Assembly: GCA_018241965.1 (NCBI GenBank)
Contig: JAFECS010000011.1
Coordinates: 92,690-156,689 of the forward strand
DNA length: 64,000 nt
Source of the DNA: Pseudomonadota bacterium
Lineage (GTDB): Bacteria > Pseudomonadota > Gammaproteobacteria > Berkiellales > Berkiellaceae
Direction of reading: 5' to 3'
Position numbers and translations under genes: made by a program. The notes beneath the pieces were generated by a model. The model was not told the origin of the DNA. It worked only from the letters and a program-made list of their open reading frames with translations, and did not search any database. Shown piece by piece: positions 12,455 through 15,612 of this stretch. Position 1 is the stretch's first letter, and every line of letters starts with the position of its first letter.

Positions 12455-13042
12455 ATGAATCTAAAATTATTTGCTGTTTTACTCGGTGGCAGAGCTCCAG
12501 GCTGTCATATAGAGCTTCACGATGTTGTATTTATTGTTAGTCCAAGTTTAGAAGAAGCTTATCCTCGTTTGGTTCATAAATGGTTTGGTACCAGCAAACG
12601 CCTGCACATAGATAGCTCCGTGGAACTATCCATCGTAGATGGCCATGAAATTATTTTGAGCAAAGAAAAACCCGACAACGCTGAAAACACTTTATATTTT
12701 GTCAACTTTGGCGGTTATAAACCAGGATTTTTTGGTGAATTACATGAAGTGGGTTTTTATGTCACTAACGCAAAACCCCTTGCAGTAGCAAAAGCAAAAA
12801 ACGAGCTTTGTGCAGGAAGCCATCAGCAACATTGTGATGATAATTTAGAAATTGCACAGTTTTTAAATAAAGCCACGGCCTTAGCTGATGATGTGATTGC
12901 TATTGAGAAAGTAGACAATTATTTCATTCATTTAAAGCCAACCTCAAAACCAGCGACCCTGTGTGTAGAATCCCATTATCGACGTTTGGACGTGCCAGAG
13001 ATCATAGAAAAAGCTAAACAACTAGGGTCTGTTGACATTTAG
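12455..13042 (+). CDS. DUF1543 domain protein (last 5 codons supplied by the inserted IS end)
   Basis: LGG...IELHDVVF, W.G...LHID and YFVNFGGY...GELH tandem motifs. Confidence 0.8.
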   Translation: MNLKLFAVLLGGRAPGCHIELHDVVFIVSPSLEEAYPRLVHKWFGTSKRLHIDSSVELSIVDGHEIILSKEKPDNAENTLYFVNFGGYKPGFFGELHEVGFYVTNAKPLAVAKAKNELCAGSHQQHCDDNLEIAQFLNKATALADDVIAIEKVDNYFIHLKPTSKPATLCVESHYRRLDVPEIIEKAKQLGSVDI

Positions 13043-13090
13043 CTTTGCTACTCACCGCCTACTTGCCGCGGCTTGTCCGCGGCATCCAGC
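13025..13090 (+). repeat. Terminal inverted repeat with embedded hairpin TGCCGCGG-CTTGT-CCGCGGCA
   Basis: GGGTCTGTTGACATTTAGC...CCTACTTGCCGCGGCTTGTCCGCGGCATCCAGC. Confidence 0.9.
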
Positions 13091-13091
13091 T

Positions 13092-13382
13092 TTAAAGGCA
13101 AATTTCTTGGTACAAATCACACCATGACGAATTGAATTCTTCGATTAAATTCAATTTCCATTGCCTACACCAATTTTTAAATCGTTTTTCGCGCCTTGCC
13201 GCTTCAACATACAATTCATGCTCTTCGTAATAAACGAGCTGATTGACATTGTATTTTGCTGTAAAACCAGGCGTTACTTTGTTTTTATGCGCCCAAACTC
13301 TTCTTGCAAGATCGCTTGTTGAACCAACATATAGAGTTCCATTTCGCTGGCTTGCCAAAATATAAACGTAATATGAACTCAC
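13092..13382 (-). CDS. Small GIY-YIG nuclease family protein
   Basis: YYVYILAS.RNGTLYVGST..LARRV..H, FT.KYNV..LVYYE and A..REKRFKNW motifs; GTG start with AAGGA upstream. Confidence 0.9.
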   Translation of the reverse strand: MSSYYVYILASQRNGTLYVGSTSDLARRVWAHKNKVTPGFTAKYNVNQLVYYEEHELYVEAARREKRFKNWCRQWKLNLIEEFNSSWCDLYQEICL

Positions 13383-13432
13383 TTCAATTCCTTAAGCAGA
13401 CAATAATTTATTTTGACAACGTCAGCATCTAT

Positions 13433-14182
13433 TTACATTGGTAACCACAAATAAAAACAAGCCATCGCTAACATCGATGCAAAATTTCTTTTTAACTTGT
13501 CATATCGTGTTGCTATTGCACGAAAATGTTTAAGCCGTGCAAAAAGATTTTCAACTAAATGCCTATACTTGTAAAGGCTCCAGTCAATGTCGGAGTTTCC
13601 CATCAGTGAATTATGTTTTCTAGGAATAATTGGTATAGATAATTTTTTTCGAGCATGCTCTCTTAGAGCTTCATTATCATAGCCTTTATCCGCAATAAGG
13701 TATTCAGAAATAGGAAGTTTACTGATAAATTCAATGGCATTTTTACAATCATGAACTTCGCCTCCTGTGATTATAAAGTCAATCGGCAAACCATAAGCAT
13801 CAGCAGCAATATGTATTTTTGTTGTATTTCCTGCAACTGATTTACCAATCCCTTGCTCATCATTACTTGCAGCTCCAGAACTATGTTGATGTGCTTTTAC
13901 AATGCTTGCGTCGATGAATTCCCATTCTAAATCTGGTTCATCCACTAGCATTTTAAAAATCATCATCAATTTATTTTTAGCTGACCAGCGATTAAACTTT
14001 TGGAAAATCGTGCTCCAACGCCCAAATTCTTCTGGAAGGTCTCGCCAAGGGCAACCCACTCGCATACGGTATAGCATGCCTTCAACCATGTCCCGAAGAA
14101 AAGGCTTGTTATAGATCCTATGTTGTCGCAAAATTCTCTTTAGCTTAGACCAAAGCTCATCGGCAAGCATTCGTCTAGCCAT
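13433..14182 (-). CDS. IS5-family DDE transposase, single intact ORF
   Basis: GCPWRDLP, IDASIVKAHQH (D), IADKGYD (D), YKYRHLVENLFARLKHFRAIATRYDK (YREK-type E). Confidence 0.95.
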   Translation of the reverse strand: MARRMLADELWSKLKRILRQHRIYNKPFLRDMVEGMLYRMRVGCPWRDLPEEFGRWSTIFQKFNRWSAKNKLMMIFKMLVDEPDLEWEFIDASIVKAHQHSSGAASNDEQGIGKSVAGNTTKIHIAADAYGLPIDFIITGGEVHDCKNAIEFISKLPISEYLIADKGYDNEALREHARKKLSIPIIPRKHNSLMGNSDIDWSLYKYRHLVENLFARLKHFRAIATRYDKLKRNFASMLAMACFYLWLPM

Positions 14183-14271
14183 TGCAAACTCGTTTTGTTT
14201 TATTTTTGACGAATAAATTCTACGAGTTTGCTCTTTTTAATCAATAACTTGTGAAGCTTGGAAAGTTAGCT

Positions 14272-14337
14272 GCTGGATGCCGCGGACAAGCCGCGGCAAG
14301 TAGGCGGTGAGTAGCCAAGCTAAATGTCAACATACCC
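14272..14337 (-). repeat. Terminal inverted repeat with embedded hairpin
   Basis: GCTGGATGCCGCGGACAAGCCGCGGCAAGTAGG...AAATGTCAACATACCC. Confidence 0.9.
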
Positions 14338-14367
14338 TAATGCCATTACAAGCTTGATAAACCCAAT

Positions 14368-15612
14368 CTAATTATTCCACCCATATAAGCAAAAGGGGTT
14401 TAAAATTGATCTTCTCCATAGTTTTTCGCGTTCAACTTTTGGCAGATCAGCTTCCTCACATAGTTTTAACCAATTATCTTGAATAATAGCAATCTGTGCA
14501 TTAATTAGATTTTTAGCTTCATCTTGCGTTATTAAAAAATGCTCACATATGCTCAATATATTACTAAGTGTCGACAAATTATCCTGATTACCTTCAATTA
14601 ACATAGCTTGGCTTGCTTCTTGACCTGATCTTAGCTGAGGTAAGATATCATAAGCAGGTGTTAATTTGAGATATTTGCCATCCCAAAATGCTGAAATATT
14701 TCTGGCATGGTCATCTGTATTTCCAATAAGCACATTAAATATTAATCTTTGATACAGCTCTTTAAGATTTTCTTTTGGCTGTGCAAATCGAGCTCGTATT
14801 ATTTCAGCTAAATCTACATAACTTGCATATCTTGCTTCTAATTCATTTAATGATAATAAGCTTAAACCACTGAGCAATAAATGACGCGAAACCCCGTGCT
14901 TTGTTACAGTGCGATCAAAACGTTCTATCAAGAGAATTTTTTTACCTAATACCGTTTTTAAATGAATTTTTGAAACCTCTAGCGGAATGAGACTAGCCAT
15001 TTTCATGGCAATATACTCTGCTTTTACTAAATCATAAATATCAGAAGATAGTGGAAATTTTGCAATATAATATTTTTCTTTATCATTAATTAAACACTTG
15101 GGCCTTGCACCGCCAACACTTGTTCCATGCATAAGTGCTGTACCAACTTCAGCAGGAAGTGGCAAGCCTTTATCAATATATTCTGCTGCATTTAATAAAT
15201 CAGCCAACTTTGAAACATTAGTTGTTCGAGGAATATATTCAGTGCTTGAAAGTTGAAAATCTAAAGCACCAATACGATTACTACCTGAAAACAACATGTA
15301 ATCTAGCTCATCAGCCATGAGTTTAGGATATTCATGCAAAATAACTCTACGCCCCCATGCATCTGGAGCTGCATCTCTTAAACAGGAGTGAATCGTGTTC
15401 ATTCCTTTGGGCTCAAATGTCCCCATTTTTAAAGGTAATTCAAAAGGCGACAAACTAATAGCATCTTCTCTTGCACGATAGCTTTTACCATAAGTAAAAA
15501 GAAATTTATTATTTTGTTTTTCTATCATGCCCGCGACAACCGGCTGAGTCTGGTTTGGTAACCAGATCCAAACATATGCCGAAGTTGCTGACTTCATATT
15601 AAAATTCATCAT
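14368..15612 (-). CDS. hipA: HipA-family kinase toxin (start may be the ATG at 15597)
   Basis: N-terminal couple domain, DAAPDAWGR, SVGGARPK, GNTDDHARN, LTPAYDI. Confidence 0.9.
   Translation of the reverse strand: MMNFNMKSATSAYVWIWLPNQTQPVVAGMIEKQNNKFLFTYGKSYRAREDAISLSPFELPLKMGTFEPKGMNTIHSCLRDAAPDAWGRRVILHEYPKLMADELDYMLFSGSNRIGALDFQLSSTEYIPRTTNVSKLADLLNAAEYIDKGLPLPAEVGTALMHGTSVGGARPKCLINDKEKYYIAKFPLSSDIYDLVKAEYIAMKMASLIPLEVSKIHLKTVLGKKILLIERFDRTVTKHGVSRHLLLSGLSLLSLNELEARYASYVDLAEIIRARFAQPKENLKELYQRLIFNVLIGNTDDHARNISAFWDGKYLKLTPAYDILPQLRSGQEASQAMLIEGNQDNLSTLSNILSICEHFLITQDEAKNLINAQIAIIQDNWLKLCEEADLPKVEREKLWRRSILNPFCLYGWNN

Follow-up and report, generated by a model that had tools for sequence, protein, structure and literature searches.

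The 64,000-nucleotide stretch of contig JAFECS010000011.1 analyzed here (assembly GCA_018241965.1, a gammaproteobacterium of the family Berkiellaceae; positions 92,690 to 156,689), hereafter the window, carries an intact insertion sequence (IS) of the IS5 family at positions 13025-14337. The element is 1,313 bp long, bears a TA duplication and has inserted into the final codons of a DUF1543 gene. Along with its DDE transposase, it codes for a small GIY-YIG nuclease, and both of its ends contain a hairpin related to the repeats that accompany nucleases of the Ssn family. We put at about 70% the probability that it is a transporter IS (tIS) driven by the DDE transposase, with an Ssn nuclease and its cognate hairpins as cargo. 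Passenger ISs and Ssn cassettes are each known, but we did not find their combination in one autonomous element described: full-text literature searches, with ISfinder lying outside the comparison, gave no description of a GIY-YIG or Ssn cargo in an IS5-type or any other DDE element.

SsnA of Neisseria meningitidis, a GIY-YIG protein of 94 aa, binds an oriented hairpin repeat, NTS, only as single-stranded DNA (ssDNA), and Ssn homologues across bacteria (CDD cd10448) are typically flanked by inverted, related hairpins, the SRM (Chenal et al., Nat Commun 2025, PMC11893778). That study raised the mobility of NTS-ssnA-NTS only as a hypothesis and reported no link to a transposase; what Ssn does in bacteria other than Neisseria was left open there, and the family was proposed as a single-strand DNA tool. 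For the CGTC-tagged palindromic repeats, no dedicated transposase has been recognized, and their links to transposase genes were only fortuitous (Di Nocera, De Gregorio, Rocco, BMC Genomics 2013, PMC3733652). The element described here bears on both matters, the lack of a dedicated transposase for the CGTC repeats and the hypothesized mobility of hairpin-ssn-hairpin units. In window coordinates, the locus comprises:

12455..13024, plus strand: DUF1543 host gene up to the insertion point (Pfam PF07566, E 1.7e-24); its final 2 bases, 13023-13024, are one copy of the TA duplication

13025..13040, no strand assigned: right-end IS tip (in transposase orientation), 16 bp, GGGTCTGTTGACATTT; the same tip occurs in 860-bp cargo-less sisters and in all composite relatives

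13041..13056, no strand assigned: variable spacer from tip to hairpin block; its sequence and length vary among relatives

13057..13089, plus strand: right-end Ssn-type hairpin block (DNA fold, covariation, partial SRM match); on the plus strand its parts are the 5' tag CTACTT, the stem 13064-13071 with 13077-13084, the loop CTTGT and the tail TCCAG

13092..13382, minus strand: GIY-YIG nuclease gene, 96 aa, single-domain, Ssn family (Pfam; homology to an NTS-flanked gene)

13383..13432, minus strand: transposase-nuclease intergenic spacer, 50 bp, free of any IS-end relic

13433..14182, minus strand: IS5-family DDE transposase, 249 aa, intact; DUF4096 and DDE_Tnp_1

14183..14271, minus strand: transposase leader, conserved in plain and composite relatives

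14273..14305, minus strand: left-end Ssn-type hairpin block, stem inside 14278-14298, mirroring 13057-13089

14306..14337, no strand assigned: left-end variable spacer (14306-14321) and 16-bp IS tip (14322-14337)

14338..14360, plus strand: second TA (14338-14339), then the displaced last five codons of DUF1543 and tandem stops

An earlier reading of this DNA from its letters alone (the original prediction) had described 66-bp inverted repeats with 2 mismatches and an outer TA. A repeat search recovers them as arms at 13023-13090 and 14272-14339, which span 68 nt including the flanking TA and are 97% complementary with 2 mismatches. Each 66-bp end is bipartite, as had been seen, and consists of the 16-bp IS tip, a variable spacer and a conserved hairpin with an 8-bp stem. 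The two intact, co-oriented open reading frames noted between them are the genes for the 249-aa transposase and the 96-aa nuclease, both on the minus strand and 50 bp apart. The absence of an inner IS end between these genes extends beyond the window: no relic of one follows the transposase stop in the window copy or in 12 related copies (13 composites). Excision of 13025-14339, that is, the element and one TA, yields a DUF1543 C-terminus of ...KQL-MPLQA followed by two stops, which had been taken to mean that the element arrived as one unit. This is borne out by the empty allele that had been proposed as a check, which we found in two Candidatus Berkiella genomes of the same genus. Their DUF1543 orthologues (83-84% identical protein) end in ...QLMPLQA with one stop and ...QLMPLLA with two, and at the empty site carry neither the transposase nor the nuclease gene. 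Since the reading frame of these orthologues needs exactly one TA at the junction, the TA is a true 2-bp target duplication lying outside the element. The insertion replaces the last five residues of the DUF1543 protein with five encoded by the tip, and its length stays at 195 aa (12455-13042); hence, the host gene may still work.

The transposase combines the Pfam domains DUF4096 (E 8e-20) and DDE_Tnp_1 (E 4e-19) and scores 262 bits against the NCBIfam IS5-family model NF033580 (cut-off 110). Its candidate catalytic residues D91, D165 and E211 are invariant across 19 relatives. Public records of close relatives carry only the name "IS5 family transposase", the nearest named relative seen being ISAba31. 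Among the metagenomic records of the closest transposases (80-88% identity), many are 1.2-1.4 kb long, which is the size of the composite element and suggestive only. A 10-bp inverted repeat in the leader (14184-14193 with 14222-14231) extends over the stretch immediately ahead of the transposase start codon, which it touches, and can pair across it. The repeat is kept in plain and composite relatives and probably hides the transposase start in read-through transcripts. The leader also contains a promoter-like site at 14244-14217, in a scan for promoters and terminators that was itself at chance level.

The mobility of the unit as a whole emerges from its relatives, which were found by a transposase scan of species-representative genomes and then by a nuclease scan that added assemblies including Fluoribacter gormanii. 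In genome G023, from another genus of the same family, the element can be aligned over its entire 1.3 kb at many sites, with 74% identity; this genome has 10 near-identical copies and one divergent copy. Nine of these were excised for comparison (8 near-identical and the divergent one): all lie in different flanks with TA on both sides, most keep both the 249-aa transposase and the 96-aa nuclease, and no insertion-site bias beyond the TA is seen among the G023 copies. Multiple copies in distinct TA-flanked contexts indicate that the whole unit transposes. The same layout recurs in Legionella sp. PATHC038 (4 loci), in the metagenome-assembled genome (MAG) MFD02832.bin.1.183 (5 loci), and in L. 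yabuuchiae, a Legionella MAG labelled L. longbeachae and other Legionellaceae MAGs. The composite architecture thus occurs in about 17 assemblies of the Berkiellaceae and Legionellaceae, which belong to two orders of amoeba-associated bacteria; among 72,556 plasmids there are no composite copies, only cargo-less relatives. Across the composites, the two genes are co-oriented and 39-110 bp apart, and in every multi-copy lineage the nuclease and both hairpins are intact. By the comparative data, the DDE transposase and tips of 16-19 bp are enough to move the entire 1.3-kb unit into TA. The same data dispose of the idea that an ordinary IS landed by chance in or beside a resident hairpin-nuclease-hairpin cassette, with the long inverted repeat as a by-product. 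Stand-alone cassettes of the same nuclease clade do exist in Legionella species; however, both hairpins are enclosed by the IS tips, the 1.3-kb unit recurs with its TA flanks at many unrelated sites in many genomes, and the empty site has neither gene. We regard such chance nesting as refuted by the recurrent TA-flanked copies and the empty-site orthologues.

The counterpart of the composite element is a set of plain sister ISs of about 860 bp, which have the same 16-bp tips and TA flanks and transposases 70-76% identical, with neither nuclease nor hairpins. They are multi-copy in, for example, L. drancourtii and also occur in L. septentrionalis and several MAGs; we take them to be part of the IS427-like group. 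In them, the transposase stop codon falls inside the right tip. More distant relatives (68% identity or less; from Methylobacter, a Gigantopelta symbiont and Alishewanella) are likewise without cargo. Like these plain IS5-family elements (about 0.85 kb), the window element has DUF4096 and DDE_Tnp_1 matching NF033580, 16-bp tips, TA duplication and a leader hairpin over the start codon; it differs in being 450 bp longer, in having inverted ends of 66 bp against about 19 bp, and in its second gene. Along with the multi-copy relatives in different TA contexts, these sisters support the proposal of the original prediction that a nuclease and its cognate palindromes have fused with an IS. In the tree of transposases, a single starred clade (SH-aLRT 97) unites 12 cargo-bearing rows and is nested among the plain ones; a sliding identity profile gave no clear recombination breakpoint.

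G023 also contains another IS5-family element (L217:518-1830 on contig 2; L209, L242, L243), unrelated to the first, which measures about 1.3 kb and has tips of its own and TA flanks. It houses a canonical NTS-ssn-NTS cassette, with an ssn gene for 95 aa, between its left tip and a degenerate transposase gene. It is present in at least three copies that are 94-98% identical, some of which have an internal deletion in ssn. Hence, IS5-family elements have captured Ssn modules more than once and in two layouts.

The ends of the composite elements are uniform in plan. All 51 distinct ends share a single pattern: the TA, a conserved 16-bp tip, a C-rich spacer variable in sequence and length, and a block that hardly varies, in which the tag CTAC(G/T)T precedes a GC-rich 8-bp stem with the loop CTTGT, and TCCAG follows the return arm. 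Counted from the first base of the tip, the stem lies at an offset of 28 to 40 nt, depending on the relative. As ssDNA the window hairpin folds with -13.6 kcal/mol (z = -3.0), and none of 200 shuffles folds as well. In 34 of 35 distinct relatives, a hairpin lies at most 62 nt downstream of the nuclease stop. When the 62 nt past that stop were taken irrespective of pairing, giving an alignment of 33 sequences, 98.5% of the cells were paired, 4 of the 8 pairs were compensatory, and shifting the partner abolished the signal. Independent compensatory stem variants were also recovered by a mismatch-tolerant genome scan, for which a reversed control pattern gave 0 matches in 41 genomes. Against the published SRM pattern, the hairpin agrees from its first stem arm onwards, loop and tail included, and the same stem-loop exists with CGTCGT tags in relatives. 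Its orientation is canonical, with the TCCAG side towards the gene and the tag outwards. Judged by its sequence, the hairpin appears to be an NTS/SRM variant in canonical orientation. The likeness to CGTC-type repeats that had been drawn in the original prediction was right in substance, as seen against the CGTC repeats (PMC3733652) and the NTS/SRM hairpins (PMC11893778). With its CTAC(G/T)T tag in place of CGTC, the window hairpin is missed by the published search pattern.

It could be argued that these hairpins serve the IS, either as subterminal sites for the transposase or a host factor or as terminators against transcription from outside, with the GIY-YIG gene as unrelated cargo. Many ISs do have end-proximal structures that damp read-through, and the right hairpin lies directly past the nuclease stop in the manner of a terminator; the hairpins may have a dual role. 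However, the plain sister ISs lack the hairpins altogether, and the loop, the tail and the 5' tag are conserved in sequence besides the pairing of the stem. Moreover, the hairpin type tracks the nuclease type: the canonical NTS belongs to an Ssn branch of its own, and the CTACGT type accompanies the branch carried on ISs. Where a cassette has neither transposase nor tips, the hairpins still remain beside the nuclease. We strongly doubt that a service to the IS accounts for them.

The nuclease consists of a GIY-YIG domain (Pfam PF01541, E 2.7e-16, residues 4-78 of 96 aa) and has no other domain; its gene begins with a GTG behind an AAGGA ribosome-binding site. It is 52% identical over 95 of 96 residues (E 2e-35) to the 95-aa protein encoded at L217:1444-1731 of G023, this comparison partner being an NTS-flanked homologue and not Neisseria SsnA itself. 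The gene at L217:1444-1731 is bracketed by the exact NTS consensus, which matches the full published SRM/NTS pattern. This homology, which supports the proposed fusion of a nuclease with its cognate palindromes, places the window protein with the Ssn single-strand DNA nucleases. Y7, Y18, R28 and E65 are invariant across 23 relatives, and three of these four (Y7, Y18, E65) correspond to Y6, Y17 and E64, which were mutated in the Neisseria enzyme. The best matches among solved structures are UPF0213 proteins at only E 5e-4, so the nuclease is no close member of that family. In the nuclease tree the window protein groups with the G023 copies (support 94). Between the two, the proportion of nonsynonymous differences (pN) is 0.08 and that of synonymous differences (pS) 0.72. 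Nucleases of transposase-less copies have omega values of 0.06-0.08, including one pair with an unsaturated dS of 0.34. By these estimates the nuclease is kept under purifying selection and outlasts the transposase in decayed copies. The dN/dS value for the pair of the window and L046 was discarded as an indel artefact. Another small GIY-YIG open reading frame, on contig 59 of the window's own genome (19737-19934, L193), is of a different type, has an early TAA and no nearby hairpins, and is unrelated to the IS cargo.

In the interpretation that we favor, the cargo would be a full Ssn module, comprising the 96-aa nuclease gene and two inverted cognate hairpins just inside the tips, with the TCCAG tails facing inwards as in stand-alone hairpin-ssn-hairpin cassettes. 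By analogy with characterized homologues, the nuclease is predicted to bind the end hairpin only on ssDNA and to cut a few nucleotides 5' of it. The predicted cut would fall within the spacer that separates tip and hairpin and would affect the strand with its 5' end at the IS terminus; each single strand of the element would then bear one cuttable, 5'-proximal site. Carried by the IS, the module would be dispersed, gene and hairpins together, inside genomes as well as between the families Berkiellaceae and Legionellaceae. The likeliest, though speculative, pay-off of the cargo, as suggested by Neisseria SsnA, would be the destruction of incoming or exposed ssDNA bearing the same hairpin; a speculative alternative would be the production of hairpin-only derivatives.

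The symmetry of the predicted cuts, which lie on the 5'-ended strand inside each terminus, raises the question of whether the GIY-YIG protein and the DDE transposase work together. In such a two-enzyme transposon it could, for instance, cut the non-transferred strand at an extruded hairpin, as in the TnsA/TnsB pair of Tn7, or couple movement to replication forks where the ends are single-stranded. The close, co-oriented placement of the two genes and the intactness of the nuclease and both hairpins in all multi-copy lineages would agree with this. On the other hand, sister ISs with the same tips transpose without such a protein, the variable distance between tip and hairpin departs from the fixed end geometry of the TnsA/TnsB type, purifying selection on the nuclease continues after loss of the transposase, and the characterized Ssn enzymes leave double-stranded DNA untouched. 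We consider a partnership of this kind decidedly unlikely. More generally, the variable tip-hairpin spacing, the plain sisters and the survival of the nuclease past transposase loss suggest that the nuclease is not required for the chemistry of transposition, and the evidence leans against a direct role. Also unlikely, and offered tentatively, is an active part for the nuclease in the life cycle of the element: it might nick the single-stranded end hairpins at replication forks or during DNA uptake or transfer, and thereby cause repeats made of the hairpin alone to be shed and multiplied, or adjust how readily the IS is excised or retained. If this were true, DDE-plus-Ssn elements would be the long-missing mobilizing machinery of the CGTC-type repeats, and the element a two-enzyme transposon. 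The existence of cargo-less sister ISs provides a natural control for the effects of the nuclease and the hairpins.

As cargo, in the reading that we prefer, the module is left behind once the transposase decays, in the form of nuclease-only cassettes, tip-bounded miniature inverted-repeat transposable elements (MITEs) and hairpin doublets. The Legionellaceae display such a decay series, from full elements through transposase remnants to tip-less cassettes; among the relatives are copies that keep only tips and others that keep only hairpins. Elements with a transposase remnant, tips, hairpins and an intact nuclease are found in L. pneumophila subsp. fraseri, L. quinlivanii and L. worsleiensis, whereas hairpins and nuclease without tips are found in L. 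wadsworthii and L. erythra. The hairpin thus remains beside the nuclease gene in transposase-less copies, as befits a cognate pair. The nucleases of all these forms make up one starred clade (SH-aLRT 99) on a long branch, with the hairpin-only forms scattered within it. This tree fits decay from IS-borne copies, though its 95 columns resolve little. Genome G022 has MITEs of 305 bp and 405 bp with tips and hairpins and no intact gene, while G003 and G012 have hairpin doublets without tips. The element provides an autonomous parent for hairpin-core MITEs. The full copies, MITE derivatives and solo hairpins that had been suggested as objects of a search in this genome and its relatives were all found. 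In the mismatch-tolerant scan, hairpins number 29 in G023, 22 in G022, 11 in G012 and 11 in G002, and no nuclease homologue was detected at E 1e-8 in G012 or G002.

Several observations weigh against our interpretation. The binding and cutting of the hairpin would be carried over from homologues, and the hairpin lacks the 5' tag, HGTCWY, that the SRM search pattern demands. The window's own draft genome (59 contigs, 87% complete) has a single full copy, the window one, besides two solo hairpins on other contigs, so that activity in this strain would have to be read from the multi-copy sets of relatives. The fusion may have a single origin or go back to repeated capture (or transposase exchange): the window transposase forms a long branch outside the starred cargo-bearing clade, and forcing all cargo-bearing transposases together costs 8.6 log-likelihood units, with p = 0.05 in the approximately unbiased test. 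Finally, G003, a genome of the same genus (4 contigs, 99% complete), has 75 hairpins, many of them in doublets without IS tips, and yields no nuclease homologue at E 1e-8 and no transposase homologue at E 1e-20. Its orphan hairpins suggest that the repeats persist, and perhaps multiply, by a route other than this IS.

Many of the G003 doublets stand back to back and pair two different compensatory stem variants. In Legionella sp. W05-934-2 (L137:1792-2050), five tandem hairpins with a 52-bp period directly follow a stand-alone nuclease gene. For one of the solo hairpins of the window's own genome, on contig 56, synteny did not define an insertion footprint, only one flank being conserved among relatives. 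The NTS consensus of Neisseria, taken exactly (26 positions, each specified or N), is present in 61 of 401 sampled Gammaproteobacteria genomes, including G023, with up to 106 copies in one 1.5-Mb genome (G095); the reversed control had zero matches throughout.

Beside the tip-less Ssn cassettes, arrays of half-sites, each a 5' tag with the first stem arm and repeated every 20-25 nt, precede the full hairpin (L135:1792-1853; L138, on both sides of the nuclease gene; L212:1780-1860), and they are of both the CTACGT and the canonical CGTC types. These arrays may be scars of repeated cutting and repair. Their resemblance to such scars could be cited for a retention or homing device, in which cutting would let repair copy the element back or into empty alleles, much as with the TnpB of IS200/IS605; accessory nucleases that favor the retention of transposons are known, TnpB being a case in point. 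Yet the recognition site here is internal to the element instead of being part of the empty target, Ssn enzymes are confined to single strands, and the insertions show no preference beyond TA. A retention function of this type is, in our view, highly unlikely.

The proposed transporter with Ssn cargo can be set against known systems from several sides. Transporter ISs carry passenger genes, as in the IS1595 family, and the element resembles them in enclosing within IS ends a gene outside transposition that moves with it. It differs in that the passenger is a predicted site-specific nuclease whose putative targets form part of each end of the element that carries it; we know of no tIS with a nuclease passenger whose targets form both ends. 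Viewed from the Ssn side, a transposase gene has been placed behind the first hairpin of a hairpin-ssn-hairpin cassette, and IS tips have been joined to its outer sides. The element shares with the Ssn/NTS systems a single-domain GIY-YIG protein of about 95 aa, bracketed by two inverted, GC-rich hairpins with 8-bp stems and a (T)CCAG tail towards the gene, along with orphan hairpins elsewhere in related genomes. Here, in contrast, the module lies inside an IS5-family element, the transposase gene stands between the upstream hairpin and the nuclease, the tips flank the hairpins externally, and the tag is CTAC(G/T)T and not CGTC. The CGTC repeats belong to the same superfamily of oriented, tagged stem-loops, and close variants of the window hairpin bear CGTCGT tags; what is different is that this variant is built into a DDE transposon and its MITE derivatives. 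A further parallel is offered by the REPtrons, which combine a REP-associated tyrosine transposase (RAYT) with repetitive extragenic palindromes (REPs), and by IS200/IS605: there too an enzyme gene sits between inverted copies of its own hairpin, many orphan hairpins exist, and the hairpins matter as ssDNA. However, the window unit has no HUH/Y1 enzyme, and instead pairs a DDE transposase for separate tips with a GIY-YIG nuclease for the hairpin. The element provides a concrete example of how an Ssn gene, together with its hairpins, moves within and between genomes, and the predicted enzyme would add a new specificity, for the CTACGT tag, to the Ssn family.

In the surroundings of the element, an Rfam scan of 12900-14500 gave no meaningful match. 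On the minus strand, 8 bp past the displaced DUF1543 stops, lies a gene for a HipA-type toxin kinase of 414 aa (14368-15612) with the HipA_C and Couple_hipA domains.

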